A stretch of 64,000 nt of DNA from Moniliella sp. 'wahieum' (Eukaryota): the NCBI GenBank assembly GCA_003971905.1, contig RSEE01000073.1, forward strand, positions 62,001 to 126,000. Reading direction: 5' to 3'. Each line of letters starts with the position of its first letter. Position 1 is the first letter of the stretch. Both the position numbers and the translations under genes were made by a program. Below are positions 15,761 through 38,514 of the stretch, one piece after another. A model generated the notes under the pieces. That model was not told the DNA's origin, did not search any database, and saw only the letters and a program-made list of their open reading frames with translations.

Positions 15761-17283
15761 GGCGGCGGAGGCTCAGCGCGCGGGCGGAGGCGCCGAGCGC
15801 CAGCGGCTTAAGTACAAGTACAAGCAGCGCAGCAGGCGTGCATGCTGGGGGGGGCGACGCGCATCGAGCATCGCCAAGCAGCAGTCGTGGTTGCTGTTTC
15901 CTGGCAGCGCATTCCAAGTCACAACACCAAATACAACACCATGCCAGGCCAGGGCGGTGCTGCTTACGTATGCCGCTGGGCGGCGTAGTGCCTGCGCCCA
16001 GCCGTCGCACACACGCCGCAGTACTCAGCAGTACTCAGTAGTACTCAACCCCCGCGCGCCCATGCCACTTCCAACATGCACAATCCCATCCACAATCCCA
16101 TCCAATCCCATCCACTCCACTCCAGTCCAACCCATCCCACCCACGCCAATCCATTCTCCTGCCTGTTCGGAGCACGCACAACAACAAAAGCGGATGCCGT
16201 CCCACCGTCACTGCTCCTCGCTCCCCTTTTCGCGTCACATGTCACACGTCACACTGCCTCAGCCTCGTATCGGCGCCGTTGCCGCGGCTACTGGCGGCAG
16301 TGGCAAAAACAGAAAACAAGAGCAGACGCACGCCAAGTTCAGCTAGTGACGAGTGCATATCGAATGGCCTGGGAGCGCTGGAGCTTGAGCTTGAGCTTGA
16401 GCATGAAGAATGGCAGCGCTAGCTGAGCTGAGCATATGAGTACTCGTCGAGTGCGCTGCGTACGTGGAGCTAGTGAGCTAGTGACTAGTGACTGATGAAT
16501 GATCGCTGGGTCATGGGAGGGCCAAGCCACAAGGACGCCACGCAAGGGGGGCATTTTCTGTCACACATGCGCAGCCAGGCACCAGGGCTGTGTGCATGGC
16601 GCGGGCGCTCCGGTCCGGTGGTGCCGGCCACGCACGTCGGCGAGCCCCTGTGTTTGGGGTTGGGTTGCCACTTTAATACTTGGTACTTAGTACTTGGTAC
16701 TTAGTACTTACTGCTAGTGCCATAATGCAAACCCACAGTGGAGTGGTGTATTTACCGCGCGGACCTGCCGGTTGTCCCCCTTTTGTTGCCGCCCCGGCCC
16801 CGCCGCAGCCTTGGCTCTCGCTTTGGGCTGGCCAATTGGACTTTGCGCCGCTCGTTGCGGTGGGGAAGGTGGGCGGGGGGTGCGCAGTTTTCCTGTTCTG
16901 GGGTGGTTAACGTACTTGACGTACGTTAATGGTTGTTTGTTGGGCGTGCGTACCGCTGCGCCGTCCACGGGCTGCTGCGAGCGCTCTCCGCCGGACGAAC
17001 GCAGCGGGCAGGCGCGCTAGGCAGGTATAGGAGCGCATAGGAGGCGGATCGGCGGGGCTATCGACTATCTGGGCCGGGGATGGCCTGTGCCATGACATGT
17101 GACGTGTGACGTGACATGTGACAGAGGAGGTGACATGTGATGCATGACAATGTCACTGAGCCAGACGCCATGCGTGACGACATGCACACTTAAGATGTTA
17201 GTGCGCCGCCACATGTGCTCCCACGACACTCTCCTCTGTGTCTGCTCTGCGCCACCACCCTGCCTCCGCTTGTCTTGTGCGCC

Positions 17284-24454: not shown

Positions 24455-27400
24455 TCAGATACTCTCGCCATCCAAAAGCTTGGAAGCGGCGCATCCAAAA
24501 AGACAGGCAACTGTTTTCCTTGTGCAAAAAACGAAACGACACAAAATAGAAGAGATAGGTGAGAGGAACCAAAGTGGTGCAAAAGACGGGTACGGAAGAG
24601 AGAACAAATTGGCAAACGGCGTCACGAGCGGAGCTCCTTCCACTCGGGGTTGTTCACCACGTACGGTACATCGCCCAAGTAGACCCCCTGAACCTCGATC
24701 CTCAAATCGGGAACTTGTGCGGCCTTCTCTACTGCCCAAAGGGCAAGCGCCAGCGTATTCGGTCCCCTCGGGTCGATGATTCCAGGCGGTACCGGGAACG
24801 AAGTTTGCGGCCCCCACCGGGCCAGGCGGCGACCGACTTGCCACCCATTCACATACAGCAACGCTCTCCAGTCCTCCGTTGGCGCCGACGCGTTCCCCTG
24901 GAAGACGAGGGCAAGTGGAAGGTCATGGCCGAGGGGTACATCGAGGGTAAAGATGGTCCGGTAAAAGTTCACCCCGGCGCCAGGCAAGCCTTGTTGTGGG
25001 CTGCCTTCGTCCCAAGCTGAATCATCAAAGCCAGGAAGATGCCAGCCCTGACGCTCGCCATACAACCCTCCTTCGTTGAGGTACATCCGAGTCTTGTCCG
25101 GGAACGATTCGCCCCCCTGGTTGCCAGTCAAGAACCAATCGACCTGCACGCCTCCCAGGTCGTACGCAAGAATGCCACGGGGCTGCTTGGTAGTCTCCAA
25201 GGGCAACCCGTCCGGGTTGGGCGTGATGGATCCTGTCTCTTCATGAGCCGTGTCATCCTGCAAGATGGTCAAGACATTGTGTTCTTTCAGTGCATGTGGG
25301 GGGAACGGCCAAGATCCGCTGGCCCGGTCATACGAGGCATTTCCCTCCAACGAGCCGAGGAACTGTTCGTTAATCCAGATCGATGCTGCAAAGTATTTTC
25401 CGCCCTCGAGGGTGAGGCTGATGCTCTTCGGTAGGGTAGAAGCAAATTCACCCTGCCAGATGAGGTTGCCACTGGTGTGGAAGCCATAGACATCAGCAAA
25501 GAGGACTGTACCATGGGTCGAGACGTTTACTTTGTTAAAGAATGGATTCGGAGTCGAGGTCAAGTTGGCCGCCTTCCAGTTTCCATCGCGTTTAAAAGCC
25601 GGAGTGATCTCAGGAAGCGAATCGCGTACCTTCCACTTCCCCAAAGCAGGCGGAGCCCACTTCTGTGCGGCAGCGGTCGGACCAGGAATTTGGGCAGTCA
25701 GCGCGCCGTAGGAAGTGTGATTGGCCGGAACCGTAGCACCATTGAAGGTGACCTTGTTGATATTCGACGGCACGAAAGCAGTTAGAGGAGCAGAGGCATT
25801 GGACTGGCCTTGGATGACAAGTGTGTCTGAAGTCAGCGTCGCATTAGCAATGTGATAGGGGCCGTGAAGAAGGATGCGGTCACCCGTGCCAACGATGGAG
25901 TCGATCGTCCCTTTGGAGGCTAGGGAAACACTCTGTGCCTTGCGAGCCCAAACACGGTCCGACAAAGCCAACGTCACATCGACACCATCCACTTTGGCAC
26001 CCACAAACACCACTTTCCCCTCGGCCGCCGACCAAGTGAGCGTGGCAATGGCGCCATTGGATTGTACCGTTACCCCGTTGGTTGCAGGTACCGTGAGATT
26101 GTGGCTTCCCTTAATCTGAAGCGTGTTGTTTTTCCCTCCTGCTGTGCTTTGCACCAGCAGCACATCTTTCCCGTCGATCGCTGCCACAAAGCTCACATCA
26201 GCTGTGCTGTAGGTGACCGTGGCATGCGAGGCAGGGAGGGTCGTGTTGACAGGCACGATAACCGAGTCCCTCCCCTCAAGGGTAATCGAGTCATTGACAA
26301 ACCGGAGCGGGTACGTGACCGTGGCGGTAGATGTCGAGTCGTTCTGACGAACGACATACCATTGCGTCCCTGTGCGTGAAGGCGAACCCAGATGGGAAAT
26401 ATGGGCACCCTCACTGGTAGTGTAGCGGTCAAGAACAGTAGATGTGGCAAAGTCTGGGAAAGAGGTAAAGAAGGAGCCCAACAGACCATAGTCTCCCAAC
26501 TTATCCCGCTTGATCCGCCGTTCATCCAGGGCCGCACCGTAATCGTAGCTAGTGTACACCAAGCCACCGAACGCGACATTGCCAAAGTTGGTTCCGCCAA
26601 AGCCCATGTAGCGCGAGATCATCTTGACTCCCTGTGCAAGTGCATCCTTATCGAAAGTTTCCACAAAATCGGGGGAAAGCAGCTGGGAACATGCCTCATA
26701 CCCCACTCCGCCATACGGATCGTAGCTCCCTCCCTGGAACTCAGGGATGAACTGAGGGTTGTGAGGCGCAATCCGGCTCAAGTTATAGTAGGTATCCGCT
26801 TTGACGGGGTTCCATTTCGTTGGGTTTCCGCAGTCGAACAATTGTCTGTTTTGTAATGGTACAACAGGGTCAGTATCTTTTCTTTAACAAGGTCGAGCCC
26901 AAATGACGTACGGGTATGAGTCTTGCCCCCAGATGTCGAGCTTGGTGTCATTGGCGTAATCCACGCCCCCCCCAATCTGGTTAAAGGTCGTAGGGACCAC
27001 GATTCCGTTGGCATGGTAGGTATCGATAAGCTGATCAAAGTAAGCCTGCATCGGTCCTGACTGCTGGAACTCGTTCTCAACCTGCACCGCAATCACCGTC
27101 CCTCCTGTCGGGTCAATCTCGCCGTTGTGCACCTTCAACTGGTAGGGGGCTGTGGCTTTGGCCACCGCCGAAATAAAGGGAGTCCAAGCATCCTGCCACA
27201 CTTTGGATCCTGTGCGCAGCTGGGTGTCCAGGTTCTGCACCCACCCAGGCATGCCCCCTCCGTTGACCTCGGCGTTGATGTAGGGCCCAGGCCGGACAAT
27301 CACAAAGAGTCCGACGTCTTTGGCCAACTGAAGGAATGCCGACAGATCGTTCACACCTTCAAGTGCGAGGCTCTTGGGGTCAGCGCTTGGCTGGCTCAGA

Positions 27401-29035
27401 CCCCAGAAAGTGTACATCGACACAGTGTTGAACCCAGCCGCCTTGAGTTTCTCCAGCGCATCCCGCCACAGTGCGGGCACTGGCAGACGGAACGGATGGA
27501 ACTCGAAAGAGTTCAACACAATGTCATGCCCGGCAATCTTGATGTTAGTATTGTCCCAAGTGACAGCGGGCGCGTCTTGCAGGGGCAGGCTCCACGCTGG
27601 AGCTGGAGCAAGCAAAAGTGCTACTAAGGGTAGCAGATGCTTAAGGAGCATGGTTGGGAGGCTATTAGCAGCGGTGTTGGCGTTGATGTATGAGAGGGAC
27701 TGTTGCAAAGACGATGATATTTATTCATCTGATGCTGAGCACTGGGCAATGCACTCCTTCATCGATCTTGTTTTTGCAGCGGGTGAAAAGGCAAAGGATG
27801 CCCGCGATCCCACAAGATGACGGTATGTTGCAGAGATGGGCTCACAGGAACAGAGTCTCAGGGAGGTGAGGCCGGTGAGGGGGCAGCCACGGGGCAGCCA
27901 CACGGTGGTTGGGATCGCCTTAACAGACAACTTTATGCACGGCCCCAGGAACGTGCCAAGGAATGAACGTGTGGCGTGTGGAGACCGAGCACCCCACATA
28001 CTCTCCCAGAATATACCCAAACCTTTTCGTCCGAGTTGTGTGGGGCGAGAGTAGGGGAGAGCTAAAGCTTCCACATGGGCGCGCACTGTTCTGGCTGCAT
28101 GTGATGCACCGGCAACCCAACACTGCTTTGGTGCAATTAGAAGCATGTCCCACCTACAGTAGGACCATGGTAGTAGGCAGGAGGCAGGGCGCGCAGTAAG
28201 CGAGCAGGCGCGAACAGACTTCTACAAGCGAAGGCCGAAGGAAGGCAAGAACAGAGGCGGTGCAAAGCAAACCATAATATGGCGCCCACAATACCATACG
28301 TAAACCCTGCCCGGCTAAAATACACTACGCAGCGAAAAGGCCGAACGCACCGTGTGGATCGAATAACAATATGCGGCAGCGGTGGTTCGTGCGCAGGTCA
28401 AGTATTGGGAGCGGGGAGAACAGGTGTGGGGCCCCAGGATTATTGGGATCCCCTCACCCGGCCATACCAGGCCATGTGGTCCATCATGCATCATGCACAC
28501 CATGATGACACCATTCGCTGTGCGCAGCCAAAAGCTGTCAGCCGGTGTGGGTCGCCATTGAAGAGGCTATATACAACACGTCATTGCGCCGCTGCAACGA
28601 GGAACAGAGCATCACACACACATTCTCCTCTCTCTCTATAACATGCGGAGAAAGAGGAGAGGCGACTTTCCCACAGCGGAAATGCATGCATACCAACTAA
28701 TGAGCGCGAACGGGTGGCAAGTAAAACGAAAGAGGGGACTAGCGATGGTGAGAGAGGCAAAGGGAGGGCGCACCTTCGCTGACACTCACCGAAACCGACG
28801 AAACGATGTGTGAGAATAAGACGAAGCCTTTTGTGCTGTCAACGCCTTGTCACGTGTCACACGCAACACTCTGACCTGTCTGCGCTGACGCGATCCATTG
28901 TCCACAGTCATATCCACATTGGGCTTGTACTTTGCTCAGAAAAGGAGGCGCAGAGGTTAGTTTGACCTTCAAGTCTTGGGCGGGGGAGAAGACTGGTTTT
29001 GTACCGTCAATCTATACTGTGGCCACTGCTGTATT
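24455..29035. repeat. Tandem segmental duplication unit A (GH35 gene plus upstream region)
   Basis: Matches 32901-37120. CDS near-identical; flanking anchors match, e.g. agatactc (24458/32904), ctcacccggccataccag (28453/36819), ttagtttga..ggggag.agactg (~28957-28996/~37017-37057). Confidence 0.85.
24622..27651 (-). CDS. Secreted GH35 beta-galactosidase, copy A (intact); intron 26846-26911
   Basis: Signal peptide; FEFHPFRLPVPALWRD, RPGPYINAEVNGGG, acid/base QVENEF, nucleophile PEFQGG, YTSYDYGA, LNEGGLYGERQGWHLPG, LYVNGWQVG, GPQTSFPVPPGI. Confidence 0.95.
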
Positions 29036-29836
29036 CACATATCATTCGCAGAGCTTAAAAGACAGGGACAAAGAAACGCTGCACCGACCACAGGCCCGCT
29101 CGATTGATGCGATCATTTCTCGTATAGTCATAAGACTTTAATTTTCAGGTAAGAGGCCCACTTGGCTTCTCCTTCTCCATCCAGGCTCTGGTGACCTTCG
29201 GCAACTTCCCTGCCCGCACAGCATCCACAATATATCTCTCAGATTTCTCAAGGTGATCCTGTTGGTCCACTTGTCGGGCTGGTTGCGCTTGGAAATGTCT
29301 TCTCCTGGACGGAAATAGTAACCGTACGTGCGCTTGAACAATTCCATATCGCCGTTGCACTCTCGATAGAACCTGACCAACGCCTTTTTGGCATCAGGAA
29401 GAAGCGTAAAGTAGGCATCGTCGCCCTCCAAGCTCCACCACTGCCAGCGCCATTCGTCTTCGAGTGCATCTTCGAGAGTGGCAGGGACCACATACCCTTC
29501 AGGAATCGTCGTCGTCCGCTCCTTCTCCGCTTCATCCGCCTTTTTGTTGTTCTTGGTTTTTCCCAGCTCGGGGACTGGCCGTCCGGGAACAAAGGCCTTC
29601 CTGAATCTCTTCTTCAACCACGTTTCCGGGCGGGCCAAATCCACTTCAGCTGGGCGTTTCTGAGCATACCTTCTCGGTTGTCGCGTCATGATAAGACGCT
29701 GTGTAGAAACGGACTTGGCTCAGGTAAAGCACGATCAACAATGTATGGGGGGGGGGGCAACTGCAAGACCAGGGTGATAAGCAGGAGCATGTGGTGCAAT
29801 ACCGGTAGGTGTGAGAGTCGGATTATAGGTGGGATT

Positions 29837-30080
29837 TGGAGCAAGAGTCGGAGCAAGAGTCGGAGCAAAAGTCGGAGCAAAAGGAGGAGCAAGAGTCGGA
29901 GCAACGGCAGGAGCCGGTGGTGCAGCAGGAGCTGGTGATGCAGCAGGAGCTGGTGGTGCAGCAGGAGCTGGTGATGCAGCAGGAGCTGGTGGTGCAGCAG
30001 GAGCTGGTGGTGCAGCAGGAGCTGGTGGTGCAGTAGGAGCGGGTGATGCAGCAGGAGCCGGTGGTGCAGCAGGAGCTGGC
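29837..30080 (-). repeat. Coding tandem repeats in the YR linker: 18-bp unit (PAAPPA/PAASPA) plus a 12-bp unit
   Basis: ggtgcagcaggagctggt-type units repeated about 9 times; ggagcaagagtc-type units about 5 times. Confidence 0.9.
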
Positions 30081-30371
30081 AAAGTCGGACCCAGCAGTAC
30101 GGGGGCGGGTGTAGGAAAGGGTGCAGGAATCAGAACAAATGGAGCAGCCGGAAGGACAGGTGTGATTACGGAGCAGTACCAGTCCCCATCTCTGGAGCAC
30201 CTCCTTGATCGCCTTCAACAAGCACTTCTGCATCCTGAGCACGCATCACCTCGGGCTCATCTTCCGGCCCATCTTGAACAATCGCCGCCTCTGGAGCATC
30301 ATCTGGTGGGTTCCGAACAGTATCAACAGCAATTGGAACTGGGGTGCCGGGAGGTGGGTTCGTGGTCACGA

Positions 30372-30612
30372 CAGGTTGCTGGGCAACAACAGGGCTGAGC
30401 AACAACAGGCTGCTGAGCAACAACAGGCTGCTGAGCAACAACAGGCTGCTGAGCAACGACGGGTTGTTGGGTAACGATAGGTTGTTGCGTAACAACAGGT
30501 TGCTGGGCAACGACAGGTTGGGCAGCGACAGGTTGTTGGGCAACGACAGGCTGCTGAGCAACGAGAGGCTGCTGGGCAACAACAGGTTGCTGAGCAACGA
30601 CCCCCAGCAATT
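30372..30612 (-). repeat. Coding 18-bp tandem repeat (QQPVVA) in the YR linker
   Basis: Translation VVAQQPVVAQQPLVAQQP... about 12-13 units. Confidence 0.9.
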
Positions 30613-32571
30613 GATGAATCTGCTTGGACAAAATGACATGTTGCTCAGTCAAGAGGTCGACCTGCTGGTCAACCGGCGGAGATCCTCGCGGTCATCGTTT
30701 CCTTCGATTTCCATGTCAGCGAAGGTTCGTTCATGCCTCACCCGCTTGTTAAGAAGGCAGCGAATCAATGCCGTGTCCTGACAATTCTCTGACCAGCCCC
30801 CCCCATTGCACCTCCACCAACGACTTAGGTCGTTCACCATAATCCTGTAAGGAAACGAGTCAGTAAGGCCGCTGCGAAGTAGACCAATCGCGGCGTCGTA
30901 GGTATGCGTACGGCAGCATACACGTAAGCATCTTGGGCTCCCCCGCGTCGGAAACAATATGTTGAGTAGGACGGTGTGCATTGTGCAAACCGAGGAATAC
31001 ACTTCAGTGTCTCCTTGATCCATCTGTTGACAGTGTTGTAGGCGATTTGATCTTTTGGACGGTTCGGGACCCCCAAAGGACCAAGGGCGGGAAAGACATG
31101 GTCATCTGGATCCATGCGGCACCTTTTACACAGAGGAAGCCCTGCCATTCAGTGAGCGCCTTCACAGCGCTGCACTCGGGACGAGACCCTTCCAGATCCC
31201 ACAGTCTATATTGCGTCACTTGATTAGCGCCATGTTGGTTGGTTTTCCGAAACGAGTTACTAGAGCGAGTTAGTATGGTGTCAAAGCGCCCGAAGGGAAT
31301 GAGCACGTACGTGACGGCGATGCCATGTAAGTATCTTTGCACTTCATTTGGTCGATGGGGCTTCGGTTTTTGGATCCGTTCGATATCCTTCCAGGTCAAT
31401 CTCAATACTTCGCTTAATCGAGCCCACAGACGATATGCGAGGATGCTGACCGTCTTGAGAGAAGTGGTTTCGTCACGTATGGATCATATGGATCATCCAA
31501 CCCTTCCGTTGGCGCACCGTAGATACCTTGATCCAGATGTTGGAGGAGTATCTTGAGATCAGGGTACAGCATAGCCTCGGACGAATGCGAATAGTGAGCG
31601 CGACGACGCAGCCGGTTGTAATATATTAACCAGGTCATCAATGAGGCAGGTGCGCGCAGGATTACCCGTGCATGTATCAGGGCGGAACTGACACAGACGG
31701 TTGGAGTCCTCAAATTTGGCCTGGAAGAACCAGAGAAGAGCAGCGCGCATCGAGGCGATGGTGTGGTGCGCCTGAGGTTTCACAAGCACATGGAACTGAA
31801 ACCACAGCATTGTCACTTCCGCCGTGCGTTCACTCTTCGTCCAGGTCGACCAAGCGGGTTCTTTACCAAGTCCATCCCCATGATCCACGCAATGAACGAT
31901 TTGACCCTCCGCTTGTACGTGCCCACTGTATTCTGTGTGAGTGATGCCCTGGCAACGTCGGTCCTGGTCGTCGTATAGTCGACGTCCAGGTCCGATTTGA
32001 TCCAGAGACGTACAACCTCGTTGTCCTGGGTCGTGTCGTAAGCTTGGGGAGCAAGGCCAAAACTTCTCTTCAATGACCTGTTTCGGAATTGTGCGGCACC
32101 ATTTGGTTCCAACGTTCCCGATCGTACTCCAGGTCCGGATCGTCTGGAACATCCACGTCGGCATCCTCTTCGTTATCGGCTTCGGTGAGGGCAGCGAGAA
32201 ACAGGGCAGTGTCCTCTGGGTGCTCTGGGACCTCGTCAGGGGCCAAGTCGTACATTTCGTCCTCGTATTCAAACGCTGGCTCGCCAAGCGGCTGAGGGTT
32301 GGCAGCAGAACGCGTCGTCCGACCGGGACCACAGCCCGACCCCTGCCCCTGCCCCTTGCTCCGCCCCTGCCTCTGCCTCTGCCTCTTCCCCGGCCCCTCC
32401 CTTGAGGCAGCGCGCGTGCAGCATGAACGGGGTCTCTTGTCGTGGCAACGGGCATGTTGGTGCTGATACGAGGAGGGGGTGGTGGGAACGCGTACAAGGA
32501 ATGCGGGAGAGTCCGATTCGATGATCTCGATGATTACACGCTGGATACGGAATTCCTTGAAACGATGACCG

Positions 32572-32607
32572 GAATTTGAAATTGTTACTGATAACAATTT
32601 CAAATTC
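32572..32607. other. Perfect inverted repeat GAATTTGAAATTGTTA-CTGA-TAACAATTTCAAATTC; candidate recombinase binding or crossover site
   Basis: 16-bp arms are exact reverse complements, AT-rich in GC-rich DNA, ~120 bp upstream of the YR ATG (32455). Confidence 0.75.
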
Positions 32608-32900
32608 GGATAAAACAGCGCCAAAAACGGCAAAGGACTTGGACAAGAAATAAGGCGGGCAGGGACGAGAATGGAAAAGGTGGGGCAAAGGATCCCCACT
32701 GAGTACTGAGTACTGGTCGAGGATGCTTACTGTTGGCTGACCCTTTTTGGTAACCCCCTCATGTTTAAGCCCATCGCGGAAGCAAACGAAGCAAGCGAAG
32801 ACTGTGAAGGCTGCGAAGGTACTAAGAAATAGGACTTCCCCCCGTTTTTCATGATCATTCGCCCGTGCACGTCCTCAGTCCGTTCTCCGCCCCCTTCAGA

Positions 32901-35900
32901 ATTAGATACTCATCATGCAAATATGCAGGGCGCATCCAAGAAAAGCCACTATTTTTCGTTTGGGGAAAAGAAAAAGGGACACAGAGTGGACACCAGCGAT
33001 GGCAAGCAGGGATGGCAAAAAAAGTAACGAAAAAGATGGGCAGGGGAGAAAGCTGGAATGGCAAATGACCACGAAGAGCGGAGCTCCTTCCACCGGGGTT
33101 GTTCACCACGTACGGTACATCGCCCAAGTAGACCCCTAACCTCGATCCTCAAATCGGGAACTTGTGCGGCCTCTCTACTGCCCAAAGGGCAAGCGCCAGC
33201 GTATTCGGTCCCTCGGGTCGTGATTCCAGCGGAGGCGGTAGGGAACGAAGTTTGTGCCCCCACCGGGCCAGGCGGCGACACAACTTGCCACCCATTCACA
33301 TACAGCAACGCTCTCCAGTCCTGTTGGTGCCGACGCGTTCCCTGGAAGACGAGAGCAAGAGGAAGATCATGGCGAGGGGTACATCGAGGGTAAAAGTTGC
33401 GATAAAAGTTCACCCCGGCGCCAGGCAAGCCTTGTTGTGGGCTGCCTTCGTCCCAAGCTGAATCATCAAAGCCAGGAAGATGCCAGCCTTGACGCTACCA
33501 TACAACCCTCTTCGTTGAGGGTACATCCGAGTCTTGTCCGGAACGATTCGCCCCCTGGTTGCCATCAAGAACCAATCAATCTGCACGCCTCCCAGATCGT
33601 ACGCAAAGAATACCACGGGTTCCTTGCCGTTTCAAAAGGCATCCGTTCGGGTTTGGGCGAGATGAATTCTGCCTGTTCATGGGCAGTGTCACCCTGCAAG
33701 ATGGTCAAGACATTGTGTTCCTTCAGTGCATGTGGGGGAAACTTCCAGGATCCGCTGGCCCGGTCATACGAGACATTGCCCTCCAACGAGCCGAGGAACT
33801 GGTCGTTAATCCAGACCGAGGCTGCAAAGTATTTTCCGCCCTCAAGGGTGAGGCTGATGCTCTTCGGTTGGGTAGAAGCAAATTCACCCTGCCAGATGAG
33901 GTTGCCACTGGTATGGAAGCCATAGGCATCAGCAAAGAGGACTGTACCATGGGTGGAGACGTTTATTTTGTTAAAGAAAGGATTCGGAGTCGAGGTCAAG
34001 TTGGCCGCCTTCCAGTTTCCATCGCGTTTAAAAGCTGGAGTGATCTCAGGAAGCGAATCGCGTACCTTCCACTTCCCCAAAGCAGGCGGAGCCCACTTCT
34101 GTGCAGCAGCGGCCGGACTAGGAATTTGGGCAGTGAGCGCGCCGTACGCGATGCGGTTGGCCGGAACCGTAGCGCCATTGAAGGTGACCTTGTTGATATT
34201 CGACGGAACAAAAGCAGTGAGGGGAGCAGAGGCATTGGACTGGCCTTGGATGACAAGTGTGTCTGAGGTCAGCGTCGCATTAGCAATGTGATAGGGGCCG
34301 TGAAGAAGGATGCGGTCGCCCGTGCCAACGATGGAGTCGATCGTCCCCTTGGAAGCTAGGGAAACACTCTGTGCCTTGCGAGCCCAAGCACGGTCCGACA
34401 AGGCCAACGTCACATCGACGCCATCCACTTTGGCACCCACATAGACCACTTTCCCCGCGACAGCCGACCAAGTGAGGGTGGCAATGGCCCCATTGGATTG
34501 TACCGTTACCCCGTTGGTTGCAGGGACCGTGACATTGGGGCGGCCTTGAATTTGCAGCGTGTTGGTTTTCCCTCCTGCTGTGCTCTGCACCAGCACCACA
34601 TCTTTCCCGTCGATCGCTGCCACAAAGCTCACATCAGCTGTGCTGTAGGTGACCGTGGCATGCGAGGCAGGGAGGGTCGTGTTGACAGGCAGCATAACAG
34701 AGTCCCTCCCCTCAAGTGTAATCGTGTCATTGACAAACCCGAGCGGGTACGAGACCGTAGCGGTAGACGTCGAGTCGTTCTGACGAACGACATACCATTG
34801 CGTCCCTGTGCGTGAAGGCGCGCCCAGATGGGAAATATGGGCACCCTCGCTGGTGGTGTAGCGGTCGAGGACGGTAGATGTAGCAAAGTCTGGGAAAGAG
34901 GTAAAGAAGGAGCCCAACAGACCATAGTCTCCCAACTTGTCCCGCTTTATTCTTCGCTCATCCAGGGCCGCGCCGTAATCGTAGCTAGTGTACACCAAGC
35001 CACCGAACGCAACATTGCCAAAATTGGTTCCACCAAAGCCCATGTAGCGCGAGATCATCTTAACTCCCTGTGCAAGTGCATCCTTATCGAAAGTTTCCAC
35101 AAAATCGGGGGAAAGCAGTTGGGAACATGCCTCATACCCCACTCCGCCATACGGATCGTAGCTCCCTCCCTGGAACTCAGGGATGAACTGAGGGTTGTGA
35201 GGCGCAATCCGGCTCAAGTTATAGTAGGCATCCGCTTTGACGGGGTTCCATTTCGTTGGGTTTCCACAGTCGAATCGTTGTCTGTTTTGTAATGGTACAG
35301 GGTTAGTATCGTTTCTTTATCACGGTCGAGCACAATTCACGTACGGGTACGTGTCTTGCCCCCAAATGTCGAGCTTGGTGTCATTGGCGTAATCCACCCC
35401 CCTTCCTACCTGGTTAAAGGTGGTGGGCACAACGATTCCATTGGCATGGTAGGTATCGATCAGCTGGTCAAAGTAAGCCTGCATCGGTCCTGACTGCTCG
35501 AACTCGTTCTCGATCTGCACCGCAATCACCGTCCCTCTCGCAGGATCAATCTCGCCGTTGTGCACCTTCAACTGGTAGGGCGCTGTGGCCTTGGCCACCG
35601 CCGAAATAAAGGGAGTCCAAGCATCCTGCCACACTTTGGATCCGGTACGCAGCTGGGTGTCCAGGTTCTGCACCCACCCCGGCATGCCCCCTCCGTTGAC
35701 CTCGGCATTGATGTAAGGCCCAGGCCGGACAATCACAAAGAGTCCCACGTCTTTGGCCAACTGAAGGAATGCCGACAGATCGTTCACGCCTTCGAGTGCG
35801 AGGCTCTTGGGATCCGCGCTTGGCTGGCTCAGACCCCAGAAAGTGTACATCGACACAGTGTTGAACCCAGCCGCCTTGAGTTTCTCCAGCGCATCCCGCC

Positions 35901-37120
35901 ACAGAGCAGGTACTGGCAGACGGAACGGATGGAACTCGAAAGCGTTCAGCACAATGTCATGCCCGGCAATCTTGAGGTTGTTATTGTCCCAAGTGACAGC
36001 GGGCGCGTCTTGCAGGGGCAGGCTCCACGCTGGAATTGGAGGGAGCAAAACTGCTAATAAGGGTAGCAGATACTTGAGGAGCATATCTGCAAGTGTGCCA
36101 GCAGCGGGGTTGGCGTTGAGAAGTATGAGAGGGGCTGCTGCGAAGACGATGGTATTTACCCATCTGACGCCGAACAGGCAATGCCCTCCGTCGATCTTGT
36201 TGGAGTGGATGAGAAAAGGATGTGGGTGCCCGATCCCCACAACCGATAACCGAGAACATGTTGAAGAGATTGGCTCCCAGGAACAGGGCTGGCCGCAAGC
36301 CATAATCTCGATCATCGATCATCGATAACCGAAGGACAGGGACAGAGACGCGGTGCAATAAGTAAACCCTACCCTTCTCCAATATACTCACCGAAAATAA
36401 GGCCGATTGCATCGCGTGGACCGAATATCGCCATGTGGCAGGGGGGTGGCCCGAGCACAGGATTAGGGGGGCGGCGAAAGCAGGCGTGGCATCAAGGTGG
36501 CTGAATCCCGATGCCAAGCCAAACAGCAATCAAGGTAATCAAGAACTGGAGGTCGACAGACAATAGGGATTGATTGCTGGTGGGCAATAGTAGAGAGTAG
36601 CGGAGAGGGAGGAGGAGGAGGGAGGGGATGAGAGGGAGGACTATAAGCTACGACTGCCAAAACTTCAAAAGGAGGCGGATTGCCTCAGACTTCCGCCCCG
36701 GCGGGGTTAGCGGAGCTGCTGGGAGGAAGTGGTTGGGAGCGCCAGAGTCCGACTATGTTCTTGGCAGACTGCACTAGTGTTTCCTCAACAGTGCCCCCCA
36801 GATTCTTAGGAACCCCTCCTCACCCGGCCATACCAGACAGGCCAGGTAGTCGACAGTGATGACACGATGACGTGTCCGCATCCACTGGCATCTCGACTTT
36901 GGGTGTAACTCACATCTATATCGACTTGGATGGGCATGTTTTCATTGCGGTGTGGCTGGATATACCCGCGGGAATAATCGGATGGAAAAAAGGACTCGAC
37001 TGGGTGCGGAGAGTAATTAGTTTGAGCTCCCCATGATTTGGGCAGGGGAGCAGACTGTTTTCCGACGACCAAATGGCGTTTTGCACCGTCAATCAAACTA
37101 TACTGACTGCGGCTGTACTT
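32901..37120. repeat. Tandem segmental duplication unit B (GH35 gene plus upstream region)
   Basis: Direct-orientation paralog of 24455-29035. Confidence 0.85.
33070..36084 (-). CDS. Secreted GH35 beta-galactosidase, copy B; intron ~35282-35344; 3' ~550 bp broken by many indels (error or pseudogenisation)
   Basis: Same motifs as copy A (QIENEF, PEFQGG, YTSYDYGA); open to ~33620, then fragmented; stop position approximate. Confidence 0.88.

Positions 37121-37414: not shown

Positions 37415-38514
<1,100 letters not shown>

Follow-up and report, generated by a model that had tools for sequence, protein, structure and literature searches.

The palindrome and its surroundings

The window analyzed here, that is, the whole 64-kb stretch of DNA, carries on its minus strand a Crypton-like, YR-derived recombinase gene (29138..32455), whose introns and 3′ end are inferred, and a perfect palindrome of 36 bp upstream of it, at 32572-32607. 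Re-reading the letters confirmed the exact 16-bp arms around a 4-nt CTGA centre, or alternatively 14-bp arms around the 8-bp spacer TACTGATA, that the original prediction had described; a 15+6+15 reading is also possible, and only the central 4 bp are asymmetric. These dimensions are those of a lox/FRT-type site (~11-14-bp arms, 6-8-bp spacer). The gene starts with an ATG at 32455, on the minus strand, and the proximal arm lies 116 nt away, close to the ~120 bp first estimated, so that the palindrome spans 116-151 nt 5′ of the ATG. Each arm contains the 10-mer TTTGAAATTG, which is in sense with respect to the gene in the distal arm (32595..32604, minus strand) and antisense in the proximal arm (32575..32584, plus strand). 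The centre (32585..32599, plus strand) begins with TTACTG and bears a weak likeness to the stretch lying before the matched part in members of the neighboring repeat family.

The palindrome is the longest perfect inverted repeat of the window, the runner-up having 11 bp, and five dinucleotide shuffles of the window gave 9-12 bp at most. Its predicted DNA hairpin fold had a z of -4.4, equaled in none of 200 shuffles. No second copy was found in the window, as had been claimed, and searching the whole 69.5-Mb genome with a 15-bp arm and up to one mismatch returned four occurrences, namely both arms and two unpaired single matches, making the palindrome single in the genome. A partner site was likewise not found genome-wide, in an assembly that may be incomplete, nor was an arm-like end found downstream of the gene (best match 9/16 near the gene and 11/16 within 2 kb). 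In 400 kb of arbitrary genome stretches, perfect palindromes with arms of at least 16 bp were absent and those with 14-bp arms occurred three times, so the palindrome is rare, yet perfect palindromes are not unique in kind. A search for a second haplotype or an empty site of the locus found none, and an Rfam search gave nothing above the gathering score. The arm-gap-arm pattern was absent from viral contigs and occurred in five prokaryotic contigs in 596 Gb; their flanks held no integrase by eye, and we rejected these five as related sites and took them as chance matches.

Directly distal to the palindrome, starting 18-26 nt from the distal arm, lies a diverged right-end remnant (32625..32846, plus strand) of a high-copy, non-coding repeat of ~1.1 kb, of which three fragments were present in 400 kb of genome stretches. 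The ends of this repeat (also L002-L030 and L078:5794-6037) are precise and unlike each other, and none of 16 copies is flanked by a target-site duplication; one copy (L003) has inverted ends, and remnants lie upstream of two of the five YR loci in the same orientation. As a candidate non-autonomous partner of the YR genes it was examined for coding or 3′ similarity to them, and none was found. Beyond it, with its 3′ end ~400 bp distal to the palindrome, follows the second copy of a GH35 beta-galactosidase gene (33031..36286, minus strand), 91% identical to the first at 24581-27853; 85 of the 129 coding substitutions between these tandem genes are at third positions. An intronless GAPDH gene at 37415-38425 is matched elsewhere in the assembly at least 15 times, with 75-87% identity, and heptamer-type repeats (TCAAGCT, GTCACAT, TAGTCAC, and ATGCATC units) are strongly over-represented in intergenic DNA, for example at 16231, 24310, and 48192 of the window.

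The assembly is rich in indels: over 4 kb, two near-identical haplotype stretches showed 66 indels beside 53 substitutions. In the second GH35 copy, homopolymers have repeatedly lost single bases between 33059 and 33652 and not between 33652 and 35297, and this clustering of frameshifts within 600 bp makes them look like read errors. Given an assembly so rich in indels close by, the frameshifts in the YR gene are probably assembly errors as well, and the exact outer limits of the palindrome may be one base off.

The YR gene and its relatives

The predicted product has a basic, RG-rich N-terminus, a SAM-like core-binding part, a catalytic domain, a low-complexity linker, and a conserved Trp-rich C-terminal domain, to which neither Pfam nor the Atlas gave a name. 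That the gene adjacent to the palindrome is a YR, as originally proposed, is borne out by homology through a large Agaricomycete family, whose profile matches the window at 2e-13, and by the predicted model of a family member, for which the best Foldseek match is Cre (E about 1e-6). Pfam integrase models yielded only weak SAM matches in the gene itself and detected neither GCR1_C nor DUF3435, a PDB sequence search returned no match, and a first protein search confirmed none of 218 candidates.

The catalytic Arg of box I (31418..31420), the catalytic Lys (31244..31246), and the second Arg are retained (all minus strand); the H-x-x-R motif reads Y-x-x-R (30948..30959), which is not decisive. By the order of YR motifs, the Tyr that comes last is the nucleophile. 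At this position the gene has a Cys codon (30757..30759), as does its closest paralogue, L074, whereas L075, L076, L077, and L109 of the same genome have Tyr. R, K, H, R, W, and Y are near-invariant among 120 family proteins, with Tyr in 117 and a gap in three, so that neither the YR gene nor L074 has the R-K-H-R-W-Y active site of a lox/FRT-type enzyme. The identification of this Tyr as the nucleophile draws on motif order and invariance and not on superposition, since the model is of low confidence around the Trp-Tyr segment.

Despite the loss of Tyr, the YR gene and L074 are under purifying selection. In clean in-frame blocks, their identity is 0.77-0.84 at second positions and 0.36-0.39 at third positions, and two more blocks that cross introns or frameshifts gave 0.61-0.62 versus 0.39-0.45. 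Such a combination, with the catalytic site lost and the coding sequence kept by selection, is what a domesticated YR that no longer cuts would show. Several Crypton-derived genes are described as domesticated in the accessible parts of Kojima and Jurka 2011 (PMC3212892), among them Gcr1, Cbf2/Ndc10, and DUF3504; those parts contain no occurrence of "palindrom" and no domestication in a basidiomycete. Like Cryptons and genes derived from them, the YR gene is YR-only and intron-bearing with an extra C-terminal domain, its relatives in mushrooms are mobile elements with a short conserved core at the end, and, as in Crypton domestications, catalytic residues were lost and the gene was retained. 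Unlike Cryptons, it has no definable ends or terminal direct repeats; the 4-6-bp terminal direct repeats and multiple copies that mark CryptonF elements were not found, the gene having no close copies. Starship captains resemble it in being fungal YRs with YxxR in place of HxxR, but, according to what is accessible of PMC11162782, they largely conserve the five residues R-K-H-R-Y, among them the Tyr that the YR gene lacks, and Starships are mostly found in Pezizomycotina.

Searches of the same genome recovered seven YR loci related to the Agaricomycete family, or five once haplotype pairs are merged. By eye, the neighbors of L074 are a TBC-like gene on one side and a pyruvate-decarboxylase-like gene on the other. 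A metagenome scan with the paralogues of this genome confirmed no relative among 51 stretches, and a search of representatives with the L075 frame gave no matches. The expectation that homologous YR genes would have comparable palindromes beside them mostly failed. None was present upstream at the six other homologous loci of the genome. From a metagenome set of 80 loci, 62 were scanned, short contigs being left out, and 11 inverted repeats scoring at least 11 were found in 10 loci, none within the YR match; the strong upstream palindromes fell into two families. In L120, L146, L155, and L160, 15-16-bp arms with a 4-nt spacer fall in what is inferred to be the final exon of an XPG-like gene upstream (identified by Pfam matches in L115 and L118). 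The homologue in L118 has one arm only, and L146 and L155 carry the spacer in opposite orientations, so that this palindrome looks, from these alignments, like a template-switch product inside a neighboring gene. A 16+4+16 palindrome can therefore arise near a YR gene without being the site of that YR. In L122, L125, and L126, 92% identity begins at a palindrome ~200 bp 5′ of the YR, and this palindrome is possibly a true element end. After alignment of the metagenome loci, we rejected upstream palindromes as a trait of the family.

What the mushroom family does share is a right end. A motif ending in AAGT, approximately GTAAATTTCTCGACATAAGT, is common to 16 independent loci of 41 examined and lies 340-2000 bp after the YR match (L113, L117, L130, L131, L136, L137, L139, L146, L154, L156, L167, L169, L174, L189, L190, and L191). 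As the flanks differ between copies, these shared ends indicate that the family is mobile. Its end core, TAAGTA, is the reverse complement of a CryptonF terminal repeat listed in supplementary file 1 of PMC3212892. A matrix built from the 16 ends found no end at any of the seven loci of our genome. In many of these elements, the YR is directly preceded by a gene for an XPG/GEN1-like nuclease (L115:1988-2347, L118:8-484, L146:917-1723, L154:1560-1961), and in some of them pieces of host genes (a Prp8 N-terminus, a bromodomain) lie further upstream as possible cargo. In the region of position 3878 of L167, an intact element, the right-end arm of the element itself recurs as a 17/20 inverted copy 45 bp before the YR ATG, and this copy is a candidate site of autoregulation. 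A search of the literature outside subscription journals found no paper on Cryptons of Agaricomycetes.

The word in the palindrome arms

Upstream of L074, TTTGAAATTG occurs once, in sense, at ~220 bp, the same orientation as in the distal arm of the palindrome, and 12 of 16 arm positions match there. Genome-wide, the word is present 209 times and the reversed word 17 times. Markov models predict 52-89 occurrences, an excess of 2.3-4-fold (12-fold against the reversed control), so that chance alone would account for between a quarter and two fifths of the 209 copies. Short cores such as TTGAAAT were not enriched in 400 kb of genome (27 versus 23-25).

We examined the first 30 genomic sites (L192-L221), which are not copies of one repeat and are located where the G/C skew flips. 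CA follows the word, giving TTTGAAATTGCA, at 14 of the 30, against a background of 5.8%; the arms in the window have TT, not this commonest extension, and TT was seen at 1 of the 30. With gene starts judged by hand, the word was 5′ of the gene in about 12 of the 16 sites with a Pfam-named neighbor and inside or 3′ of it in four. Several sites lie between divergent genes, such as CDC45/NDUFA12, UBC/RPB2, and V-ATPase E/Cys-Met enzyme. TTTGAAATTGCA has the look of a promoter element in general use, at housekeeping genes and divergent gene pairs, and TTTGAAATTG would be a protein-binding site in these promoters. No fungal report of the word was found in literature outside subscription journals, and it is apparently an undescribed, frequent promoter word of a basidiomycete. 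We assumed that it might be a CHR-type site read by a tesmin/LIN54 protein; a TCR search for such a reader gave no match, and the controls were likewise without a match.

Head-to-head pairs are another matter. With a spacing of 2-19 nt, TTTGAAAT pairs exist at two places in the whole genome, the palindrome and a subtelomeric locus, where no YR was found within 9 kb. The latter pair (L223:730-1020, on C181, adjoining telomere repeats) belongs to a subtelomeric unit that is partly duplicated 250 bp away.

The arm words also recur in front of mushroom YR genes. Arm 8-mers were found upstream of 8 of 19 such genes, some of these loci being related to one another (1.9 expected, 0/1000 shuffles, p = 0.002 with permuted arms), and arm 9-mers upstream of four (0.5 expected); the downstream control gave 2/19. 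Arm 7-mers, upstream of 10 of the 19 against 6.7 expected, were not significantly enriched (p = 0.07), and AAATTGA, TTGAAAT, and GAAATTG are among the ten most enriched 7-mers there. All eight 8-mer matches are in sense, between -58 and -213, and only L121 has an inverted partner.

Origin and possible roles of the palindrome

We hold it somewhat likelier than its negation that the palindrome is a promoter element doubled by a template switch and not a recombination site. In this explanation, TTTGAAATTG would be a directional cis-element of many promoters in this fungus, present as a single copy upstream of related YR genes and presumably read by a host factor. One copy would be an original part of the promoter of the YR gene, and a polymerase that switched templates would have added a head-to-head copy and brought the arms into perfect match. 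The switch was probably seeded by a short imperfect inverted match at the boundary between the repeat remnant and the promoter. The gene behind the palindrome would be an ancient Crypton-like YR, kept under selection despite the loss of its nucleophile, and since it has no nucleophile, nothing in cis could cut at the palindrome.

The centre of the palindrome resembles the repeat family at the expected place, which is where most of 28 copies have their best local match, so a switch that started at the repeat junction is possible; the similarity reached p = 0.00-0.03 in 7 of 28 pairwise tests and was not significant in a profile test. As reported in the accessible parts of Rozenfeld et al. 2026 (PMC13100816), template switching in yeast promoters commonly turns imperfect repeats into perfect arms of 10-48 bp. 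Our palindrome is like these expansions in arm length, short spacer, promoter position, and overlap with the likely site of a factor, and unlike them in that it is known from one allele, whereas the imperfect ancestral allele is known in the yeast cases described there.

An unlikely rival is that the palindrome is the autoregulatory operator of a domesticated, catalytically dead YR with Cre-like DNA-binding domains. The predicted protein would bind TTTGAAATTG half-sites in roughly 120-150 promoters and sit as a dimer on its own double site. That the arm core word recurs singly upstream of related genes keeps this reading in consideration. The 10-mer lies upstream of both Cys-bearing paralogues and not at the Tyr-bearing L075, L076/77, and L078/109 in the stretches examined, selection acts on the protein without its Tyr, and 14-bp arms with an 8-bp spacer fit the geometry of a YR dimer (11-13-bp arms, 6-8-bp spacer, in the accessible parts of PMC3212892). 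Words resembling the terminal arms of the mobile relatives are mildly enriched upstream of the ATG (mean score 7.0 versus 4.3 +/- 0.65), L167 has its 17/20 arm copy there, and Gcr1 and Cbf2/Ndc10 provide precedents. However, a match to the element's own arm is found upstream in only 1 of 10 loci, the palindrome has no significant score on the end-arm matrix (p = 0.32), and the genomic sites are single and directional, with head-to-head pairs in just two places. The word also lies upstream of distant mushroom transposon YRs that have different end arms, for which a shared host factor is the simpler explanation. In its full version, in which a dead Tyr-to-Cys recombinase, domesticated in this basidiomycete lineage, would read TTTGAAATTG(CA) in well over 100 housekeeping and divergent promoters and control its own gene, we regard the proposal as somewhat less probable again. 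If true, a recombinase-site pair would have turned into a transcription factor-operator pair whose target word can be read from the sequence.

Slightly behind the operator in our estimation comes a functionless junction scar, where the edge of the repeat remnant and the promoter would together have made a quasi-palindrome, template switching would have perfected it, and the match to the word would be incidental. The closeness of the remnant to the distal arm, the alignment of the centre to the expected place in most repeat copies, and the share of the 209 10-mers attributable to chance are all compatible with such a scar, but against it stand the 10-mer at a similar place upstream of L074, with its 12/16 arm match, and the enrichment of arm words upstream of family genes.

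The original prediction allowed for a cognate crossover site or an autoregulatory operator, and so for a possible new recombinase-site pair. A relic or live lox-like site, whether it marks the founding element's left end or circle junction or is cut in trans by one of the Tyr-bearing paralogues, now appears doubtful. In its favor, besides the geometry of arms and spacer, TTACTG at the centre is the terminal repeat of three oomycete CryptonS elements in supplementary file 1 of PMC3212892, although the match can be chance with about 15 words in that list; the family end core is the reverse complement of another published terminal repeat, the palindrome of L122, L125, and L126 sits where their 92% identity sets in, and four loci of the genome itself keep Tyr. 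The system would also be like loxP/Cre and FRT/Flp in having inverted arms around a 6-8-bp spacer beside a YR gene and a family member modeled closest to Cre; it differs from them in that the palindrome is single and asymmetric over 4 bp only, next to an enzyme without the nucleophile. What makes a crossover site unlikely is the combination of Cys for Tyr, the missing partner site, the absence of upstream palindromes at the six other homologous loci of the genome, and the mismatch to the family ends, which score 18.7-35 on the end matrix against -1.8 for the palindrome. Moreover, the matrix finds no end at the seven loci of the genome, the YR gene is single-copy, its downstream side offers no arm-like end, and an unselected end would not have stayed perfect, since third positions are saturated against L074. 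An assembly artefact is barely credible, for the dense 1-bp indels close by (33059-33652) are single-base homopolymer losses, errors that would disrupt a 16-bp inverted match and not create one.

A new eukaryotic pair of the Cre/lox type would be a tool, but the evidence points against one at this locus. As a starting point for an active fungal recombinase and its site, the conserved right-end motif of the mushroom YR family is the better choice. The Tyr-to-Cys pair of YR genes under selection is a candidate domestication in this fungus, with a concrete candidate binding site.
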